Below are positions 19,736-28,526 of a stretch of 64,000 nucleotides of DNA, in pieces. The stretch comes from Planctomycetota bacterium (GTDB taxonomy: Bacteria; Planctomycetota; UBA8108; SXIK01). Both the position numbers and the translations under genes were made by a program. Position 1 is the first letter of the stretch, and each line of letters opens with the position of its first letter. The notes under the pieces were generated by a model. That model had not been told where the DNA came from. It saw only the letters and a list, made by a program, of their open reading frames with translations, and did not search any database. The stretch covers positions 5,056,001 to 5,120,000 of the forward strand of contig CBDCXR010000004.1 of assembly GCA_965223845.1 (NCBI GenBank). Reading direction: 5' to 3'.

Positions 19736-20971
19736 TCAGAGTCGTCCGCGCACCTGAAATCGCGCGAGGACGAGGAAGCTGACCGCGAAGATGACGACGA
19801 GCGCGACGAGGACCACCATCACCGACTCGGTCGAGAAGCCCTCGCGCGGATAGGGAGGCGTCGGCTCACTCTTCTCGAGGAGCGTCGTCCAGTCGCCTTT
19901 GAACTTTCCCGTCGTCAATTCGCCCCACCGGTCCCGATCGAAGCGAAACCGCTGAATCGTCCACAGCTCGTCGTGCCCCGTGTCGCCGGTGTGATTCGCG
20001 CGAATGCGGAGCTCGACGCGGGCGAGTCCCTCGGCGCCGGCAAAGAGCGCGCTCACGAGCTCCGGCACTCGCTCGAGGTACTCCGCGGTCGGCGCGACGT
20101 CCTCTGATTTCGCCGCATCGAGAGCCCGATCGTCGAAGTAAGAAACGTCGAGCACCACGTTCGCTCGGTCCTTCGTTCGCTCGTTGACCGCAGTGGCGAT
20201 TCCGGACAGGCCCAAGTCCGGGGCGAGGCGCTTCGCAGTGCTCGCGAGATCGTTCGCCACCTCGTCGATCGCTTCGGTCTCGGCTAGCGCGCGCCGCTCC
20301 TTCTTGCGATGAGCAGCAAACCGAGAGCTGACCTCGTCGACGAGCTCGCGCTGCTCGTCGAGGCGCTCGCTCAGTCGCTTCGATGCCTCGTCGAGCTTCG
20401 CCAGACCGGCTTCGAACGACTCCGCCGCGTCCGCAATCGGAAGGACGTCGGACTCGACGCCCACTTCGCCGCCGCTTCGCGCCGTGGCCACCAGTTGGTC
20501 GACCGTATCGACAAGCCGGAGGATCTCGGCCTTCTCTTTCCGCACGCGCTCGAGCTCGTTCTTGCATTCGTCGCGCGCTGCGACGCTCATCTTCCAGTCC
20601 GCTCGAAACTCGTCTCGCAAGTCCTCGAGGTAGGGCGTCGCCTCGCCCGAATCGACGTTCTTCGTCAGCGCTTCGAGCTCATCGAATCGCGCCAGCGCCT
20701 CGCGCGCCTTTCCCTCCACGTCCCCGCTTTCTTTCACCGCAGCCGAAATCGTTCGCGCGGCGCGCCCGAGGACGCGGATCACTCCGCCCGCGAGATCCGC
20801 GCTCTCGACCTCGGACGCATCATCGAGCGTCGGGAAGTCCTCGAGATCGTTCGCGACTTCCTGCGGACTGGCGAGCAGTTCGCCACGCATCGCGAGGAGA
20901 AGAACCGTCGCGAGAGCTACCACCGAGAGCCGAGCGAAAACGAAGCGGGACACCGGCCCAGATCCTCCCAT
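19736..20971 (-). CDS. Hypothetical exported coiled-coil protein with a C-terminal membrane anchor
   Basis: N-terminal hydrophobic signal (LSVVALATVLLLA), long Glu/Ala/Leu heptad region, small alpha/beta domain, C-terminal TM VMVVLVALVVIFAVSFLVLA followed by basic residues. Confidence 0.75.
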   Translation of the reverse strand: MGGSGPVSRFVFARLSVVALATVLLLAMRGELLASPQEVANDLEDFPTLDDASEVESADLAGGVIRVLGRAARTISAAVKESGDVEGKAREALARFDELEALTKNVDSGEATPYLEDLRDEFRADWKMSVAARDECKNELERVRKEKAEILRLVDTVDQLVATARSGGEVGVESDVLPIADAAESFEAGLAKLDEASKRLSERLDEQRELVDEVSSRFAAHRKKERRALAETEAIDEVANDLASTAKRLAPDLGLSGIATAVNERTKDRANVVLDVSYFDDRALDAAKSEDVAPTAEYLERVPELVSALFAGAEGLARVELRIRANHTGDTGHDELWTIQRFRFDRDRWGELTTGKFKGDWTTLLEKSEPTPPYPREGFSTESVMVVLVALVVIFAVSFLVLARFQVRGRL

Positions 20972-21068
20972 ATACGTCGACGAAACACCGGCTGACGAAA
21001 CCTCGGGCGGCGACCCGTCCGATTCTCAGGGCGCCCATCATACCCGCGGCCACTCGCGAACTCAGCGC

Positions 21069-24000
21069 TCAGGACGGCCGAACGATCTCGAGGATCCGCT
21101 CGCCATAGTTTTCGCAGATCTTCGGGCCGATTCCCGGGATTTCGCGCAGGGACTCCTCGTCGCCGGGGCGCGCCGAGGCGACCGCGAAGAGAGCGCGGTC
21201 CGTGAGAACTCTAAACGCCGGGATCTGCCGACGCCGCGACTCCCCGAGGCGCCACTCCTTGAGTGCGTCAACGACCTCGCGCGGCGCATCGTCGACGGAG
21301 ACGACCGGCTCGCGCTTCCCTCGCTTCCCCGTCCCGGCTCGACTGCGCGACGTTCGCGGACGACGCTTCCGAGCGCACTCGCGGACGATCTTCGCTTCAG
21401 AGTAGTCGGGCGGCGCGACACGCGTGCCATCGCTCGAGAGATACGCGCGACGGTACCCGACGACTCGACCGTCCTTCTCGAACGATGCATCCTCGAGCCG
21501 CACCCACCCCGCTCGCACTACCGCGGCGAGCACACGCTCGCCTTCCTTCCGGTCGAACGCTCCACCCGCATCCGCCTCCTGGAAGAGCCGCCCCGTACCG
21601 ATTCCTTCCCGTTCGCGCAAGACGTCGAGCATCCTCCCGATGAGGATCTCCTCGATCGGCGACGGATCGCGCAACTGGCGGACGAGACACTCTAGCGGCG
21701 CGCAGGCATCGCAGATGCCGCAGCTCTCTCCACGATCTTCTTGATCGCCGAAATGCTGAACGAGGTGCACCATCCGGCAGCCTTGCCGTTCGGCGAAGCG
21801 AAGAATGCGGTCGAGCTGCTCGCGCTTCCACTCTCTTTGCTGCTCGTAGGGAACTTGCCATTCCGGTCGCCCTCGCCGGACGGAATCGCCGGCGGCGACG
21901 ACCGCGCCGCCGTGGATCCAGAGCTTCTCGAGCGCGACATCGAAGGTTTCAGGGTCGACGCGCTGCGTCGGGTCCGGGTTCGAGGCGAGGAAACCACGAA
22001 GGTCCTCACGGACGGAAGGCTCTTCCGGAAGTGCGGCGAAGACGCGAGCGAGCTCGAGGGGATCGGGGTAGTCCCGCTGGTGGAAAAACTCGTGCGTTCG
22101 TCGGTCTGCGTACGAATACAAAAGGATGGCTCGCGACGGCAGCCCGTCTCGCCCGGCCCGGCCGATCTCCTGGTAGTAGCCCTCGACACTCGATGGGAGA
22201 GCAGTGTGAATCACCGTCCGGATATCCGGTTTGTCGACTCCCATTCCGAACGCGATCGTCGCGCAGATCACGTCGAGCTCGCCCGATAGAAAGCGCCGCT
22301 GGACGGACTCGCGGTCCTCCGCGGAGCGGCCGGCGTGGTAGGCGGCGCTCGAGCAGAGCGCGGAAAGGTCGCGGCCGAGCTGTTCGGCCTGCTTGCGCGA
22401 CGGCGAGTAGACGATGGCCGGACGACGCTCCGGGTCCGCGAGTACGTTCGCGACCGCCTCGGGACGAGACGACGGCGGCATCTCGGCCACCTCGACTGCG
22501 ATGTTGCTCCGCCGGAATCCGTGGATGTGGGGCTCACCGCGGAGACCGAGCTGACGAACGATGTCTTCCTGCACCGCGGGTGTCGCCGTCGCGGTGAGAG
22601 CGATCACCGGCGTCGGTCGAAAGAGCGGCAGGCGCTCACCGAGCATGCGGTAATCGGGCCGAAAATCGTGACCCCACTGCGAGATGCAATGGGCCTCGTC
22701 GATCGCGACCAAGACCGGAGGACGGCGGCCGAGCATCTCGGGGAATCCGGGAACGCTCAGGCGCTCGGGCGCGATGAAGAGATAATCGAGACGCCCCTCG
22801 AGATACGCGATGCAGACCTGCCGGGAGTCGAAGCGGTCTCGCCCCGAGTGAATTCGCTCAGCGCGGAGACCGAGTGCGCGGAGCTTCGCGACCTGATCCT
22901 CCATGAGCGCAATGAGCGGCGAAATGACGAGTGTCGTTCCCGCGCGTGCGAGTCCGGGGAGCTGGTAGCAGAGCGACTTTCCGGCGCCCGTCGGCATGAC
23001 GACGAGCATGTCCTTCCCTTCGGTCACGGCACGACAGACTTCCTCCTGGTGCGGACGAAATTCCTCGAGGCGAAACGCCGTCGAAAGGAGTGAGCGAAGG
23101 TCGTTCGGCGCGACCGGGTCGCGCGAGATCTCGACGGGGAGGTCAGCGCGTTCCTTCGACACGCGCTCCCCCGAGTCGGCCTCGTGTTCGATCGACGTCG
23201 TCGAGTCCGTCGATGATGAGAGCGAGGGGGCCGGCGACGCGCCATCGTTCGGGACCGCCCCGCCCGGCGCCGGCCCGAGCCCGAGACTCGAGCCCGAGCG
23301 CTCCCGCCGCGAAGATCCGACGACGCGGCGCACGTAGTCCTCCACCGCGCGCTGAAACTCGTCGAGCGCGAGCGTTCCCCGCTCGATCGCCTTGAGACGC
23401 ATCTCCCACTCGCCCGTCATCGCGGGACTCTTCACTTCCGGATGCACGACCTCGATGAGCGCGAGACCCTTCTCCGTCGCGCGAAGCGTTTTCTTCTCTC
23501 TCGTGACGTAGGCTCGCCGGAGAAGCGTTTCGATGATCTCCGCTCGCGTCGCCGGAGTGCCGAGCCCAGCGTCGCGCATCGCCTCGGAGAGCTCCTCGTC
23601 CGAGAGCGTCTTCCCCGCCGACTCCATGGCGGTGAGCAAAGTCGCATCGGTGAACGGCCGGGGCGGTGTCGTCTTTTTCGCGACGGCCTTCGCATCGAGG
23701 ACGGCAACGACGCAGTTCGCTTCGAGCCCCGCGGGAAGAGCCGTCTCGGACGCTCGAGACTCTCCCGTGCGCTGCGCGCGAGGAGGCTCGTCACCGGAGC
23801 CTTTCTCGGACTTCGGTCCCGTCGATTTCTTCGCCCCACTCTCGCCCTGCGGAATCTTCGCATCGAGAATCTTCCAGCCGATCTCATCGACTACGGATCC
23901 CTTGGTCACGAACCGATCGGGAGGCGACTGCCGATCCTCGATGACGCCACCGGCTTCGCTCGAGAGCTCGGGACGGACGGCGGTGACGACCGTCGTCACA

Positions 24001-25271
24001 CTCCAGACGTGATCGGGATGCCACGCCGCGAGGAGGCGACGGCAGACCAGGTCGTACAGGCGCTCTTCGTCCGCCGAAAGACGCCGACTCTCCGGCGTGG
24101 TCGTCGTCGGAATGATCGCGTGGTGGTCCGTGACGCGCGCGTCGTCGACGAAGCGATTTCCGAGCGCGCGAACACCCGTTCCCTCTGCGAGCAGCCCTTC
24201 GTAGCCGCTCCGTACCGCACCGACCACCTCGCCGAGAGTCGCTGCCGCGGCCGTCGAGAGATACCGGCTGTCCGTGCGCGGATAGCTGATGAGCTTTTTC
24301 TCTTCGTAGAGCGACTGAGCGACTCGGAGAGTCCGCGCGGCACTGAAACCGTAGAGACGGTTCGCGTGGCGCTGCAGCTCAGTGAGATCGTAGAGGCGAA
24401 GCGGCGCGAGACGTCGCTGCTCGCGTTCGACGCTCTCGACCGCTGCCGTGCCCGTCATCGCGCGGTAGACGATGCCGCGCGCCGCTTCGCCGTCGGCGGG
24501 GAGTCGCTTCGATTCCGTCGACGCTCTCTCGCCGGCGAAGTAGACTCCACGGTACCGAGTTTCGCACGCGCCTTCGCCTCGACCACGGGTGCCGAGCGAC
24601 GGGGCCGCATCGAACGTCGCCTCGACCTCGAGGTAATCTTCGGGAACGAAGCGGCGGATCTCGAGCTCGCGCTCGACGAGCATCGCGAGCGTCGGCGTCT
24701 GAACGCGTCCGACAGAGTAGCTCACTCCCTCCTCGAGCGTCGTCAGGCGAGAGAGATTCATCCCGACGAGCCAATCGGCGCGACTCCGGCCTCGCGCAGC
24801 ATCGGCGAGGGGGTCGAATTCCGACGCTGGACGCAGCTCGCGAAAGCCACGGCGGATCGCATCCGGGGTGAGCGACGAAATCCAGAGGCGCCGCACGGGA
24901 TGGCGGCAGCCGCAGGCTTCGGCGATGTAGCGAAAGATCAGCTCGCCTTCGCGCCCGGCGTCGGTCGCACAGATCACCTCGGTGACCTCGGGGGATTCGA
25001 GCCACCGAGCGATGACGTCGAACTGCTCGCGCGTCTCTTCCCGGACGACGAGCGGCCACGAGTCGGGGAGAAGCGGGAGCGATTCGAGCGACCACCGCTT
25101 CCACGACGGGTCGATCTGGTGCGGCTCCGCGAGCCCCACGAGATGCCCGACCGCCCACGTGACGACGTACCCGGCACCGCTGTGGTACCCGTCGCCGCGC
25201 GAGTTCGCGCCGAGCACGCGCGCAAGATCGCGGCCGACGGAGGGCTTCTCAGCAATGACGAGCGTCGTCAC
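21069..25271 (-). CDS. topB-recQ: DNA topoisomerase III - RecQ helicase fusion (Toprim/Topo IA, RecQ SF2 core, RQC Zn site, HRDC)
   Basis: GAGGAG RBS and GTG start. Topo: IAEKPS, ATDAGREGE, SVGRVQTPT, ISYPRTD (catalytic Tyr), DHHAIIPT, GLGTPATR. RecQ: MPTGAGKSLCYQLP, SPLIALMEDQ, DEAHCISQWGHDFRPDY, TATA, AFGMGVDK, YYQEIGRAGRDG, CR..CGICDAC, HRDC LKEWR..IPGIG. Confidence 0.95.
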   Translation of the reverse strand: MTTLVIAEKPSVGRDLARVLGANSRGDGYHSGAGYVVTWAVGHLVGLAEPHQIDPSWKRWSLESLPLLPDSWPLVVREETREQFDVIARWLESPEVTEVICATDAGREGELIFRYIAEACGCRHPVRRLWISSLTPDAIRRGFRELRPASEFDPLADAARGRSRADWLVGMNLSRLTTLEEGVSYSVGRVQTPTLAMLVERELEIRRFVPEDYLEVEATFDAAPSLGTRGRGEGACETRYRGVYFAGERASTESKRLPADGEAARGIVYRAMTGTAAVESVEREQRRLAPLRLYDLTELQRHANRLYGFSAARTLRVAQSLYEEKKLISYPRTDSRYLSTAAAATLGEVVGAVRSGYEGLLAEGTGVRALGNRFVDDARVTDHHAIIPTTTTPESRRLSADEERLYDLVCRRLLAAWHPDHVWSVTTVVTAVRPELSSEAGGVIEDRQSPPDRFVTKGSVVDEIGWKILDAKIPQGESGAKKSTGPKSEKGSGDEPPRAQRTGESRASETALPAGLEANCVVAVLDAKAVAKKTTPPRPFTDATLLTAMESAGKTLSDEELSEAMRDAGLGTPATRAEIIETLLRRAYVTREKKTLRATEKGLALIEVVHPEVKSPAMTGEWEMRLKAIERGTLALDEFQRAVEDYVRRVVGSSRRERSGSSLGLGPAPGGAVPNDGASPAPSLSSSTDSTTSIEHEADSGERVSKERADLPVEISRDPVAPNDLRSLLSTAFRLEEFRPHQEEVCRAVTEGKDMLVVMPTGAGKSLCYQLPGLARAGTTLVISPLIALMEDQVAKLRALGLRAERIHSGRDRFDSRQVCIAYLEGRLDYLFIAPERLSVPGFPEMLGRRPPVLVAIDEAHCISQWGHDFRPDYRMLGERLPLFRPTPVIALTATATPAVQEDIVRQLGLRGEPHIHGFRRSNIAVEVAEMPPSSRPEAVANVLADPERRPAIVYSPSRKQAEQLGRDLSALCSSAAYHAGRSAEDRESVQRRFLSGELDVICATIAFGMGVDKPDIRTVIHTALPSSVEGYYQEIGRAGRDGLPSRAILLYSYADRRTHEFFHQRDYPDPLELARVFAALPEEPSVREDLRGFLASNPDPTQRVDPETFDVALEKLWIHGGAVVAAGDSVRRGRPEWQVPYEQQREWKREQLDRILRFAERQGCRMVHLVQHFGDQEDRGESCGICDACAPLECLVRQLRDPSPIEEILIGRMLDVLREREGIGTGRLFQEADAGGAFDRKEGERVLAAVVRAGWVRLEDASFEKDGRVVGYRRAYLSSDGTRVAPPDYSEAKIVRECARKRRPRTSRSRAGTGKRGKREPVVSVDDAPREVVDALKEWRLGESRRRQIPAFRVLTDRALFAVASARPGDEESLREIPGIGPKICENYGERILEIVRPS

Positions 25272-25619
25272 TCAACCACTCCTCTTCACTCCCCTTCCCA
25301 CCGGCGCGAGAAAGCGCCGAGTCCGCCGCGTACTCTATCGCGGACTTCCGCCACGATGCCACCGGCACCGTCCGGCGCGGGCCGACGGGCGCGCGGAGCG
25401 CGATTCGAAACCACGCGCCCCGGCAGCCCGGTCCCCTCTCTCTAATACGCGTTCGAAGCGAACGCCACTCGAAGACCTCTCGCCCTTTGCGCGGGAACGG
25501 CGCCTTCGCCCCCGAGTGACTCGAAGCGAAGAAAACCATCATCCGTTCTGTGAGGCGGCGTAAACCTCGATTCACAGCGCTCCGGCTGGTTCTCCCTCCC
25601 GGTCCGGGCGCTTTCTTCA

Positions 25620-25898: not shown

Positions 25899-27248
25899 TC
25901 AGCCGCGCGCGGCCCGCCGGCGAGCCGTCCAGGCGCGGAAGAACACGCGCCAGACGAGACCGATCGCGATGAGACTCAGACCGGTCGCACTCGAGCGCCA
26001 GTCGACCCAGACTGCGAGGCTGAGGCAGCCGGCGAGCGCCGCAGTGGAGATCCAGCGCGGATAGAGGCGCTGCTCGTCCGAGAGACGGAGCGCGCAGAAG
26101 TTGTTGATCGCGTAGTACACGAGCACGGTGAACGCGCTCAGCGACCATGTGGTGCGGACGTCGCCGACGAGGACGAGGAGACCGACGAGGACGCCGACGG
26201 TGAGAACCGCGATCGGCGCGGATGTCCGCGCGGCGTTGATCACACCCACCGGCGCCGGCGCATCCCCGCGCCGGGCCATCGCGAGCAGCACGCGCGAGAG
26301 CCCGAGCAGCAGGTTGAGGGAGACACCGAGAAGCGCGCAGGCGGCTCCGGCGGTCACGAAATGACTCAGCCAAGGCCCGGCGAAATCGCGCGCGACCTCG
26401 CCGAGCGGCGCCGCACTCGACGCGGACGTCGAGACGCGCTCGACGCCTACCGCGCCGATGGCGGCGACGACAACGGCGGCGTAGAGAAGGAACGACGCGA
26501 TCACCGTCACCGTGATCGCGCGCGGAATGGTTCGCCCCGGCTCGTGGACCTCCTCTCCCATCGTCGCGATGCGACCGTAGCCCGTGTAGGCGACGAAGAA
26601 GAGCGCAGCGGCACGCAGCGTCGACGCCGCACCCGACGCGGCGCTCTGCTCAGCCGGGAAGAACGGCGTGAGTCGCGTGAAGGTCTCCGCTCCCGACGAC
26701 GCTAGCGCCACGACGACGAACACTCCGAGCGCCGCGAGTGGAACGGCGATGAGGACGGTGTTCGCGCGCGTCGAGCGCCGCACTCCCGACGCGACGAGAA
26801 TCGTGAGAACGAAACCCGCGAGGAACGCGACCGGAACGCGTCCGAACCAGGGAGTCTCCGGCGCGAGCATGCGGGCGTACTCTGCGAATCCCAGGAGCGC
26901 CGTCGCCGCGGATGCGCTCTTCGCGATCAAAAAGAGCCAACCGGCGGTCCAGCCGAGCTCGGGCGACGCGTAGACATAGCCGTATTCGTACGCACCGCCG
27001 CTCACGGGATGGCTCGCGGCGAGCTGGGCGCTCCCGAGTGCGTTCGCGAACGCGAGAAGCCCGGCCAGCGCCAGAGAGAGAATCGCCGCCGTACCGGCGA
27101 GCTCGACGGCGAGGGGAGCGGTGACGAACACACCGCTCCCGAGCATCGCCCCGAGCCCGAGAGAGACCGCGCCCGCGACGCCGAGCTCGCGGCGAAGACG
27201 CGGCGACGCGGACGGAGAGCTCGATGGGGAGGCGGATGGGGAGGTCAT
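25899..27248 (-). CDS. APC-family amino acid permease
   Basis: ATG 27248; LRRELG..GAMLGSGVF, PVSGGAYEY, FFVAYTGY..GEEVHEPGRTIPRAI, SRVLLAMARRG; about 12 TM helices. Confidence 0.92.
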   Translation of the reverse strand: MTSPSASPSSSPSASPRLRRELGVAGAVSLGLGAMLGSGVFVTAPLAVELAGTAAILSLALAGLLAFANALGSAQLAASHPVSGGAYEYGYVYASPELGWTAGWLFLIAKSASAATALLGFAEYARMLAPETPWFGRVPVAFLAGFVLTILVASGVRRSTRANTVLIAVPLAALGVFVVVALASSGAETFTRLTPFFPAEQSAASGAASTLRAAALFFVAYTGYGRIATMGEEVHEPGRTIPRAITVTVIASFLLYAAVVVAAIGAVGVERVSTSASSAAPLGEVARDFAGPWLSHFVTAGAACALLGVSLNLLLGLSRVLLAMARRGDAPAPVGVINAARTSAPIAVLTVGVLVGLLVLVGDVRTTWSLSAFTVLVYYAINNFCALRLSDEQRLYPRWISTAALAGCLSLAVWVDWRSSATGLSLIAIGLVWRVFFRAWTARRRAARG

Positions 27249-27503
27249 GGTGTCCGGGCGAGGGGTCGCTCCATCGACGCGCTGAATCGCGACGGCGAAA
27301 GAACGTCTCATACCACATCTCGACCGCTCCGCGCAGAGAATCACGCGATCCGCCGAGGGGTTCCGAGACCGAGGTTTCCCGCCGCGAAAAGTTCGGGTAG
27401 GCTCGTTCCTCTCCGCCCGCGAGCGTCTCCTTCGACTCTGCGCCACGGAGCGGAATCGCCTCTGTCGAGACCATCCCCACGAAACCCCTCGAGGTATTCT
27501 TTC

Positions 27504-28526
27504 ATGAGACGATGTGCTGCTCTGCTCGCGTCTACCGCGCTTGTCATCTCCACTGCCGGCTTCACCGCTCGCGTGCGTGCCGCCGAGGATTTGTGGGTCG
27601 TCTACGAAGGAAAGAGTGGACTCCCGGGTAGCGGGAAGCACGTCGTTCTCGTCTCCGGCGACGAAGAGTACCGGTCGGAGGAAGCGCTTCCGCAGCTCGG
27701 TAAGATCCTCTCCGTCCACCACGGGTTCAAATGCACCGTAGTTTTCGCCATCGATGAGAAGACCGGCGAGATCAACCCGGACAATCAAAACAACATCCCG
27801 GGGCTCGAGGCGCTCAAGTCGGCGGACCTCATGATCATCGCGACGCGCTTTCGCGATCTGCCGGACGAGCAGATGGCCCACATCGTTGAATACGTGGATT
27901 CCGGGCGCCCGATCATCGGCGTGAGAACGGCGACGCACGCGTTCAACATCAAGTCCGGAAAGAAGTACTCGCGGTACAGCTTCAACAGCCGAGAGTGGAC
28001 GCAAGGCTTCGGGCGTCAGGTCTTGGGCGAGACGTGGATCAACCATCACGGTCACCACGGACGCGAAAGCACGCGAGGAATCATCGCACGCGGAATGGAG
28101 AAGCACCCGATCACGAAGGGCGTGAAGGACATTTGGGGGCCGACGGACGTCTACGGCGTTCGTCTCCCTCTCCCGGAAGGTTGCCAGCCGATCGTCCTCG
28201 GCATGGTGATGGCGGGGATGACTCCCGACGCGCTCCCGGTCGAACGGAGGAAGAACGATCCGATGATGCCGATCGCGTGGACGAAGACGTTTAAGAGCGC
28301 GAGCGGAAAAGAGGCGCGGGTCTTCACGACGACGATGGGCTCGTCGACCGATCTCGAAAGCGCGGGCCTCCGACGCTTGCTCGTCAACGCGGTCTATTGG
28401 GCGACCGGTATGGACGACAAGATCCGCGCGGATTCGAGCGTCGACATCGTCGGGAAGTACGAGCCGTTGCCGTTCAAATTCGGTGGCTACAAACGCGGCG
28501 TGAAGCCAGCGGACCACAAGCTCTAA
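27504..28526 (+). CDS. Secreted ThuA-like domain protein (PVC type)
   Basis: ATG 27504 with signal peptide; HVVLVSGDEEYRSEEALP, PGLEAL..ADL..RFR, G.RTATHAF, WINHHGHH, HPI, RVFTTTMG, LLVNAVYWA. Confidence 0.85.
   Translation: MRRCAALLASTALVISTAGFTARVRAAEDLWVVYEGKSGLPGSGKHVVLVSGDEEYRSEEALPQLGKILSVHHGFKCTVVFAIDEKTGEINPDNQNNIPGLEALKSADLMIIATRFRDLPDEQMAHIVEYVDSGRPIIGVRTATHAFNIKSGKKYSRYSFNSREWTQGFGRQVLGETWINHHGHHGRESTRGIIARGMEKHPITKGVKDIWGPTDVYGVRLPLPEGCQPIVLGMVMAGMTPDALPVERRKNDPMMPIAWTKTFKSASGKEARVFTTTMGSSTDLESAGLRRLLVNAVYWATGMDDKIRADSSVDIVGKYEPLPFKFGGYKRGVKPADHKL

Follow-up and report, generated by a model that had tools for sequence, protein, structure and literature searches.

RecQ-family helicases and topoisomerase III (Topo III) are textbook partners in eukaryotes (BLM-TOP3A-RMI), and their loss leads to genome instability. 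The eukaryotic complex is non-covalent, uses the N-terminus of the helicase, and needs RMI1. In Escherichia coli, the same two enzyme families are represented by RecQ and TopB, separate proteins that act with single-stranded DNA-binding protein (SSB). Studies by Harmon in 1999 and 2003 and by Suski and Marians in 2008 reportedly demonstrated that RecQ stimulates decatenation by Topo III in vitro. Stimulation of this kind is described for a reconstituted E. coli replication cycle in a passage of PMC5714178. The bacterial partnership rests on in vitro work, and passages of a 2026 E. coli study (PMC13244152) call it into question. Reverse gyrase, which holds a superfamily 2 ATPase and a type IA core in one chain, is the only natural fusion of a helicase to a type IA topoisomerase (Topo IA) described in passages of PMC8185306 and PMC7245102. 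Here, a gene is reported that encodes a Topo III and a RecQ-family helicase in a single chain. It lies at 21069..25271 on the minus strand of a 64,000-nucleotide (nt) stretch of DNA from a Planctomycetota bacterium (the window; positions 5,056,001 to 5,120,000 of contig CBDCXR010000004.1, assembly GCA_965223845.1). This fusion is a previously undescribed form of the known RecQ-Topo III partnership. It is probably a functional single-chain Topo III-RecQ enzyme, with two catalytically complete halves on a flexible tether.

The fusion can be compared with each of the described systems. It combines the same two enzyme families as the E. coli pair: its Topo half folds most like E. coli Topo III, and its RecQ half can be matched to the core of E. 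coli RecQ. Unlike in that pair, the two enzymes are covalently joined, the topoisomerase belongs to a Firmicutes-like TopB subfamily (NF005829) with a D-x-G Toprim motif, and the RecQ, into which an additional winged helix is inserted, scores under the RecQ equivalog cut-off. BLM-TOP3A-RMI1/2 and Sgs1-Top3-Rmi1 likewise pair Topo III with a RecQ helicase that has Zn-binding, winged-helix, and HRDC regions, and BLM is the top structural match of the fusion's RecQ half. The contacts of the eukaryotic dissolvasome are replaced here by a covalent tether, which runs from the C-terminus of the topoisomerase to the N-terminus of the helicase. Reverse gyrase, which is confined to hyperthermophiles, has its helicase-like module at the N-terminus and Topo IA at the C-terminus, whereas the topoisomerase comes first in the fusion. 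Its helicase-like module is also not a true RecQ with Zn, winged-helix, and HRDC regions, as that of the fusion is. The reverse gyrase model TIGR01054 failed on the fusion (94.5 against a cut-off of 471.7). This score and the order of the Pfam domains agree with the initial annotation, made from the sequence alone, in which the order was said to be opposite to that of reverse gyrase and the helicase to be different. Stand-alone Firmicutes-type TopB (NF005829/PRK07726) belongs by score to the same subfamily as the Topo half, shares ATD[A/S]GREGE, YPRT, and HH with it, and is approximately 40-47% identical to it. The stand-alone protein keeps a Cys4 tail, where the fusion has a linker and RecQ instead, and the fusion's Topo half falls in a separate clade. 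A search of the full-text literature, mostly outside subscription journals and outside supplements, found no paper describing a Topo III-RecQ fusion, in line with the initial annotation, which knew of no characterisation. Specialists appear to be unaware of it, as the 2020 PNAS paper PMC7245102 treats reverse gyrase as unique in the passage concerned.

The gene is a single open frame of 1400 codons plus stop with a GTG start and no internal stops, and the N-terminus of the protein is in register with the N-termini of its homologues (alignment A1). The region 20800-25500 is spanned by one Logan contig in each of four runs, with no differing letters and no gaps. The four runs come from two samples of one study and are possibly the source data of the genome, so their independence from the assembly is uncertain; the comparison was made with assembled contigs and not with raw reads. 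The initial annotation had asked for coverage to be confirmed across 23000-23400, and there the per-run contigs contain no stop, frameshift, or misjoin. The open reading frame (ORF) call and these contigs bear out its claim of one uninterrupted ORF of 1400 amino acids (aa). The "joints" that are listed at the locus have sides of only 20-21 nt and belong to other contigs. An uninterrupted fusion frame is also present in 63 fetched loci, which come from many unrelated assemblies. The fusion ORF is confirmed as real and as one intact gene. Its features are listed below in the order of translation, with positions in the window.

25279..25287, minus strand: Shine-Dalgarno-like GAAGAGGAG, purine-rich, with a 7-nt spacer to the GTG (read from the sequence)
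21069..25271, minus strand: whole fusion gene (ORF call; contigs from four runs agree without differences)
24873..25265, minus strand: Toprim domain, residues 3-133, including E8 (Pfam PF01751; E8 aligned to E. coli TopB)
24942..24962, minus strand: Toprim acidic motif D104-A-G-R-E108-G-E110, with G106 in place of the second Asp (alignment to E. coli TopB)
23355..24818, minus strand: Topoisom_bac core, residues 152-639 (Pfam, E 3.5e-102)
24282..24284, minus strand: catalytic Tyr330 in SYPRTD (aligned to ITYPRSD of E. coli Topo III)
23697..23981, minus strand: low-complexity, K/E/S/G-rich variable insertion in the Topo core, residues 431-525 (alignment and AlphaFold2, AF2)
23106..23306, minus strand: inter-domain linker, residues 656-722, S/G/P/A/T-rich, Cys-free, and hypervariable (alignments)
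22569..23057, minus strand: helicase lobe 1 (DEAD), residues 739-901, with Walker A and DEAH plus aromatic-rich loop (Pfam and alignments)
22143..22460, minus strand: helicase lobe 2 (Helicase_C), residues 938-1043, with QEIGRAGRDG (Pfam and alignments)
21873..22061, minus strand: inserted winged-helix-like module, residues 1071-1133, ALEKLWIHGG with Trp1118 (gap in alignments to PDB structures; AF2)
21702..21845, minus strand: RecQ Zn-binding region, residues 1143-1190, with Cys1165, Cys1184, Cys1187, and Cys1190 (Pfam PF16124)
21438..21659, minus strand: winged-helix (RQC-type) domain, residues 1205-1278 (AF2 and Foldseek; no Pfam match)
21285..21419, minus strand: basic spacer, predicted disordered, residues 1285-1329 (predicted local distance difference test, pLDDT, below 50 at residues 587-598 of the half; variable in A1)
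21081..21278, minus strand: HRDC domain, residues 1332-1397 (Pfam PF00570, E 7.9e-18; helical bundle in the model)

The N-terminal half passed the NCBIfam cut-offs for NF005829 (634.7 against 597) and for TIGR01056 topB (548.1 against 515.75), and it aligns to E. coli Topo III (1d6m) with an E value of 1.8e-86. E8, Tyr330 in SYPRTD, and HHA at 383-385 are invariant in all 16 aligned fusion proteins, and Tyr330 is invariant in alignment A3 as well. The matching ITYPRSD stretch of E. coli Topo III is presumably the one that holds the catalytic Tyr. Thus, the half can be called a TopB-type Topo IA with a catalytic YPRTD, as had been proposed. The Toprim acidic residues had been called intact, and this is true of E8, D104, E108, and E110 and not of the second Asp, which is Gly106. 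The motif reads D104-A-G106-R-E108-G-E110, where E. coli TopB reads D-P-D-R-E. All 63 fusion Topo halves and all 28 stand-alone relatives, the latter from genomes of Clostridia, Planctomycetota, and Acidobacteriota, have D-[A/S]-G-R-E-G-E, five rows with contig-end or adjacent-frame problems having been left out of both groups. Since all members of both groups have Gly, it is a trait of the subfamily and not a defect. In E. coli Topo I, the replacement of a single Asp is tolerated.

The AF2 model of the Topo half (pLDDT 88.4; predicted template modelling score, pTM, 0.85) has a four-domain toroidal fold nearest to that of Topo III. Its top Foldseek match is E. coli Topo III (E 1.7e-52 to 4.8e-51; for 1d6m, template modelling scores, TM, of 0.80/0.86 and E approximately 5e-51), and Topo I (approximately 1e-34) and reverse gyrase (approximately 1e-26) follow well behind. 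Residues 551-568 align without gaps to the stretch of 1d6m that we take to be its decatenation loop (residues 502-519 of E. coli Topo III), and they are conserved in the fusions. No other protein of the set has as long a variable insertion, which here takes up 102 aa between residues 425 and 526 (median 70 in fusions and 60.5 in stand-alone proteins), and residues 473-508 are predicted to be disordered.

In the C-terminal half, residues 726-1072 align to the RecQ cores of Deinococcus radiodurans and E. coli with E values of approximately 1e-90. The superfamily 2 motifs, among them the arginines of motif VI, are present in alignments to 4q47, 1oyw, and 4tmu. The half passed the recQ_fam model TIGR00614 (384.5 against a cut-off of 219.8). 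Walker A (MPTGAGKS) and DEAH with the aromatic-rich loop are invariant in the 16 aligned fusion proteins. Motif VI, QEIGRAGRDG, is kept in the same proteins, except that one of the 16 has Ala for the first Gly of GRDG. Cys1165, Cys1184, Cys1187, and Cys1190 are invariant in alignments A1 (16 of 16 fusions) and A2. Relative to the E. coli and D. radiodurans RecQ structures, approximately 60 aa are inserted in the segment that joins the helicase core to the Zn site. In the AF2 model of the RecQ half (pLDDT 91.9, pTM 0.82), residues 1071-1133 form three helices and a hairpin; next come the Zn helices, another winged helix (1205-1278), the basic disordered spacer, and the HRDC bundle. Foldseek matched the half best to BLM, over 714 columns, and to the E. 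coli RecQ core, over 582 columns (TM 0.70). The full RecQ that had been described, with helicase motifs, aromatic loop, Cys4 site, and HRDC, is borne out by these motifs and domains. Its winged-helix region is seen in the model and by Foldseek, and Pfam misses it. Two modules of this kind are present, and the inserted one at 1071-1133 had been left out of the domain list. The motifs and domains show that one gene encodes a predicted complete TopB-type core and a predicted complete RecQ-family helicase with Zn, winged-helix, and HRDC regions.

The linker between the halves has 67 aa, of which 57% are S/G/P/A/T, and no Cys. At the DNA level it contains only weak micro-repeats, such as GCCCGA repeated 4.3 times at 23273-23299 (score 38). 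Over 64 fusions its length ranges from 15 to 271 aa, with a median of 43.5. A Cys4 pattern is present in the C-terminal tail of 13 of the 14 nearest stand-alone TopBs, whose tails are 47-234 aa long. The C-terminal Cys4/DNA-binding tail of the stand-alone members of the subfamily is absent from the fusion, which has the linker and RecQ in its stead. Thus, the idea that a linker replaces the usual C-terminal Zn ribbons stands for this TopB subfamily, where it is based on a Cys pattern; Pfam names the stand-alone tail in one of six proteins (Toprim_Crpt), and one more has weak, sub-threshold Zn-ribbon matches. A tether that is hypervariable and appears flexible takes the place of the Cys4 tail of stand-alone TopB.

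The fusion gene is conserved across hundreds of genomes and is frequent in certain bacteria of the soil. All 120 best matches in a collection of 5.8 billion proteins, the window protein included, carry the same six Pfam domains, and the other 119 are 1324-1499 aa long and 52-60% identical to it. Where they are named, they are called "DNA topoisomerase 3", "DNA topoisomerase III", or "topoisomerase", as the initial annotation had suspected, and come from Thermoanaerobaculia, Acidobacteriota, Stigmatella, and Cystobacter. With one genome per species, full-length fusions were found in Acidobacteriota (Thermoanaerobaculia, Bryobacterales, and Terriglobales), Myxococcota, and Oligoflexia (Bdellovibrionota). 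Single metagenome-assembled genomes (MAGs) labelled Geobacter, Acetobacteraceae, Competibacteraceae, and Solirubrobacteraceae also have one, and some of these labels may be binning errors. In Planctomycetota, the fusion was found in one of 401 sampled genomes, that of the window itself, among the matches listed; no other open frame exceeds 1113 aa among the matches listed (150 of 593). In a control, true fusions had frames of 1311-1476 aa also where their match was split. Two planctomycete genomes of the same family have single halves only. In Acidobacteriota, six of 301 genomes have the fusion, including the centre genome, which was picked for having one. In Myxococcota, frames of 1226-1763 aa are present in at least 87 of 301 genomes (at least 86 of 300 without one unpublished genome), a lower bound that comes from 150 of 218 matches, the other 68 being unlisted. 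The first look was a stricter one in the Planctomycetota and Myxococcota surveys. A 1272-aa frame (G559) was removed from the count as not being a fusion, because its N-terminal 675 aa contain no Topo domain.

The host assembly is 7.93 Mb and 91.7% complete. Two matches to Topoisom_bac (PF01131) are present in it, the fusion gene and TopA, the latter with four Toprim_C_rpt repeats. Only one other RecQ-family match is above the cut-off, a 521-aa protein with DEAD and Helicase_C and no Zn or HRDC domain. The initial annotation had proposed to look for stand-alone topA, topB, and recQ; TopA is present, and stand-alone TopB and a second complete RecQ are absent from the assembly. No Topo III besides the fusion was found in this assembly, and no other RecQ with Zn and HRDC domains, so the work of those enzymes is done here by this one protein. 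No conserved neighbour was found across 64 fusion loci, the largest cluster being six loci of one close clade once shadow ORFs overlapping the fusion gene had been removed. Therefore, no adaptor is encoded alongside it, a statement about these loci, as a genome-wide search for an RMI1-like protein was not made.

The evolution of the two halves was explored with halves covering more than 560 query residues. In the Topo tree (FastTree, 96 halves), all of the fusion halves fall in one clade of 68 rows with a support of 100. The non-fused rows inside this clade are three that are cut at contig ends and two with RecQ in the adjacent frame, and 28 stand-alone TopBs lie on the other side of the tree. 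The fusion-type RecQ also forms one clade (support 100) apart from classical RecQ, both with FastTree (94 rows) and with IQ-TREE under LG+C20 (51 of the 94 rows). Stand-alone RecQ-HRDC proteins are nested at several places within this clade. The fewest changes between fused and stand-alone forms on the RecQ tree are seven (45 rows), or six in a second count. These stand-alone RecQs are genuine, as no remnant of a Topo was found in the 650-2790 nt upstream of any of 24, and five of five controls were positive.

The absolute statement that the Topo half never occurs alone was rejected, because many Topo-only database entries with 56-61% identity contradict it. Most of these entries are marked "partial" and are on short contigs. 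Twelve are on long contigs. In six of the 12, the tails match off-frame translations of the DNA for the linker and the RecQ N-terminus in real fusions (E 1e-11 to 3e-38), and these six are frameshift-split fusions. No stand-alone fusion-type Topo III was verified in the Topo tree, the genome surveys, or the 12 long-contig entries. RecQ has repeatedly become independent and no such case was verified for Topo, which fits a Topo half that has lost its tail and depends on the RecQ half.

The evidence leans towards a horizontal acquisition of the gene in this lineage. The donor would have resembled Acidobacteriota or Myxococcota, and the transfer would be old enough for the gene to have taken on a native-looking composition. 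The nearest rows in the trees of both halves are fusions from Thermoanaerobaculia, together with two labelled Competibacteraceae. The gene was found once in the 401 genomes of its phylum among the matches listed, and the planctomycete stand-alone RecQs form a separate clade. On the other side, placing the RecQ half with seven planctomycete stand-alone RecQs costs 11.74 log-likelihood units and is not rejected by the approximately unbiased test (p = 0.319), so horizontal transfer is not proven. The GC content at third codon positions (GC3) is native-like (0.79, against 0.72-0.82 in the neighbours). Synteny was uninformative when the 411-aa and permease neighbours were sought in related genomes, the permease being only 29% identical within the family.

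A possible mode of action can be put together from these parts. The RecQ motor would bind gapped, forked, or branched DNA through its winged-helix and HRDC regions. ATP-driven unwinding would then supply the single-stranded DNA required by a type IA enzyme. Topo III, which the tether would keep at a high local concentration and which has no DNA-binding tail of its own, could cleave a strand at Tyr330 and pass another strand or a duplex through the gate. Likely substrates would be late replication intermediates, precatenanes, converging forks, hemicatenanes, and possibly double Holliday junctions. The proposed reactions would be the ones that E. coli RecQ and Topo III, as separate proteins, have been demonstrated to carry out in vitro. 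The role as a decatenase or dissolvase, the coupling of the two activities, and the independence from an adaptor are what we infer from this.

Several points weigh against such an enzyme. No biochemical, genetic, RNA, or protein evidence was found for the fusion or its relatives, and that its two activities are coupled is purely inferred. Gly stands in for the second Toprim Asp, and no activity data were found for any member of the D-x-G type. The equivalent of the decatenation loop keeps its length but is acidic and not basic. The RecQ half is under the cut-off of the RecQ equivalog TIGR01389 (461.4 against 640.2), so it can be called a RecQ-family helicase and is not filed as an orthologue of E. 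coli RecQ. The range of linker lengths argues against a fixed geometry. The other six of the 12 Topo-only entries on long contigs end 5-31 residues past the core and could be true stand-alone proteins. Passages of PMC13244152, some of which refer to its Supplementary Figs S6 and S8 for the recQ results, report that no physical interaction between RecQ and Topo III was observed in E. coli and that genetics favour RecG, and not RecQ, as the partner of Topo III.

The halves may be tethered without being coupled, the fusion serving only for co-expression, stoichiometry, or co-localisation, or being cleaved in the linker, so that the halves act independently. In E. coli, genetics in the passages mentioned give no sign of cooperation between RecQ and Topo III in vivo. 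A linker that is hypervariable in length and sequence is what a passive tether would show, only four RecQ positions are conserved in fused forms but not in stand-alone ones, and a RecQ half that has become stand-alone at least six to seven times evidently works alone. A neutral join, however, would not predict a fusion that is kept intact across several phyla at 52-60% identity. The loss of the Cys4 tail, together with a Topo half that was not verified alone, suggests a need for the RecQ part, and the in vitro stimulation in the passage of PMC5714178 also argues for cooperation. Independent halves therefore appear unlikely, and two complete halves that cooperate on a flexible tether are the preferred reading.

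It could also be that the halves dock onto each other, perhaps through the inserted winged helix and Trp1118, to form an ATP-driven topoisomerase like reverse gyrase. Such a machine could have a new activity, such as directional supercoiling or obligatory ATP-gated strand passage. Passages of PMC7245102 on reverse gyrase show that fusions of a helicase to Topo IA can gain a new activity, and the Topo half was never verified alone. Trp1118 is the clearest of the four fusion-specific RecQ positions. It is Trp in 97% of 60 fused and in 9% of 23 stand-alone rows (nine outgroup rows plus L062 and L141 having been dropped), and it was lost in five separate stand-alone lineages. However, the residue is kept by two stand-alone RecQs and is missing in two fusions, and its link with fusion was not significant (sign test, median p 0.25), a test that cannot reach significance with only five to six independent pairs. 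As a fusion-linked residue, Trp1118 is suggestive only. A complex prediction for the Topo core (1-655) and RecQ residues 1061-1400, both from alignment A1, gave 0.00 against a mark of 0.32, which speaks neither for nor against docking. The linker varies 18-fold in length, and both the domain order and the helicase type, with the TIGR01054 score given above, are unlike those of reverse gyrase. Docking with a new activity is accordingly quite improbable. A somewhat different proposal would make the protein a mesophilic counterpart of reverse gyrase, an obligate and integrated machine that unlinks DNA with ATP. Its tail-less Topo would no longer work without RecQ, and the halves would exchange signals via the Trp1118 patch of the inserted winged helix; this is a doubtful, though arguable, proposition.

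An accessory or mobile module, comparable to the TopB of plasmids or of integrative and conjugative elements and serving an element or defence instead of chromosome maintenance, is very unlikely. Its patchy distribution in three phyla (one of 401 genomes among the matches listed, six of 301, and at least 86 of 300) would fit such a module, as would gene trees that mix phylum labels and the interruption of one relative (P0329) by an IS66 transposase. Some of the odd labels may be MAG binning errors, however, and the 64 loci have no conserved neighbour beyond one close clade. The neighbours in the window, besides a 411-aa protein, are an amino-acid permease, an ExbB-like protein, and a TonB-dependent receptor. 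The composition of the gene is native, and it is the sole Topo III and sole full RecQ of the genome. That adjacent topB and recQ genes were joined on paper by an assembly or sequencing error is barely credible. In its favour, the opposite error is known from long-read MAG relatives with halves in adjacent frames (L066, L075, and L076) and from the six split Topo-only entries. Against it, the four per-run assemblies (which may be source data) are identical base for base over the gene, and the frame is continuous in 63 fetched loci and all 120 best database matches.

A functional single-chain enzyme would interest those who work on topoisomerases and recombination. That several phyla have kept the fusion is independent evolutionary evidence that the two enzymes are used jointly in at least those bacteria. 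If the two halves do work as one integrated enzyme, the fusion would be natural evidence for a true RecQ-Topo III partnership in bacteria, contrary to the recent E. coli genetics, and it would provide a model of a dissolvasome in one polypeptide. A one-chain protein could also be used to study how a helicase feeds a type IA topoisomerase, with no adaptor to reconstitute. Tractable hosts may exist, as genomes labelled Stigmatella, Archangium, and other Myxococcales carry the fusion. The label "DNA topoisomerase 3" conceals the helicase half and has spread to stand-alone RecQs.

RecQ-HRDC proteins that belong to the fusion-type clade and stand alone occur widely in Planctomycetota, Acidobacteriota, and Myxococcota, and those examined (L011-L021, of the planctomycete family f57, and P0122-P0241) have the additional winged-helix insertion. 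One source calls many of them "DNA topoisomerase-3", though they have no topoisomerase domain, and this name has been taken over from the annotation of the fusions. One Myxococcales MAG (G402) has both a fusion and a stand-alone fusion-type RecQ paralogue (L078 and L115; C8:1430419-1434451 and C4:2938223-2940229), which are sisters on the tree; the stand-alone paralogue is 54% identical to the RecQ half of the window. The second RecQ-family protein of the host (G000:C4:1323459-1324508; L004:1150-2712, minus strand) has a very long branch among classical RecQs.

Other forms of the gene were found among the relatives. The fusions in MAGs with odd labels (L032, L041, L033/L036, and L069) nest inside Acidobacteriota or Myxococcota clades and represent either horizontal transfer or mis-binned contigs. 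Fusion frames in Myxococcota reach 1763 aa, far longer than the forms in Acidobacteriota and in the window, mostly by longer linkers. In several draft genomes (G991, G1001, and G867), an assembly break falls in the linker and the halves are on separate contigs. In the three long-read MAGs L066, L075, and L076, the Topo and RecQ halves are in different, adjacent frames; the likeliest cause is a single-base error made in assembling the GC-rich linker, and not a real two-gene operon. In P0262 (975 aa, on a 17-kb contig), a fusion-type Topo III core is joined not to RecQ but to an ArsA/GET3-type ATPase domain (687-940). It is either a second natural Topo III-ATPase fusion or a chimeric gene call. 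P0343 (921 aa) has the Topo III core and HRDC with no helicase domains and may be an internal-deletion variant. P0329 (872 aa) is a fusion that is cut off after the DEAD domain by an IS66-family transposase fragment.

No sigma-70-like promoter was found. Three terminator-like sites were found, fewer than the shuffled mean of 4.2, and none of them is between the fusion gene and the next ORF. Such predictions say little for a planctomycete. A gap of 97 nt separates the fusion gene from this next ORF (19736-20971, minus strand, 411 aa), which lies downstream in the same orientation and may be co-transcribed with it. The ORF matched no Pfam or NCBIfam family and had no match in three of three genomes of the same family or order. 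Upstream of the fusion gene, an 872-aa ORF (25899-28517, minus strand) has its permease domain at residues 445-838 only. Its N-terminal approximately 440 aa match no family, and either the true start is later or this is an unrecognised N-terminal domain.

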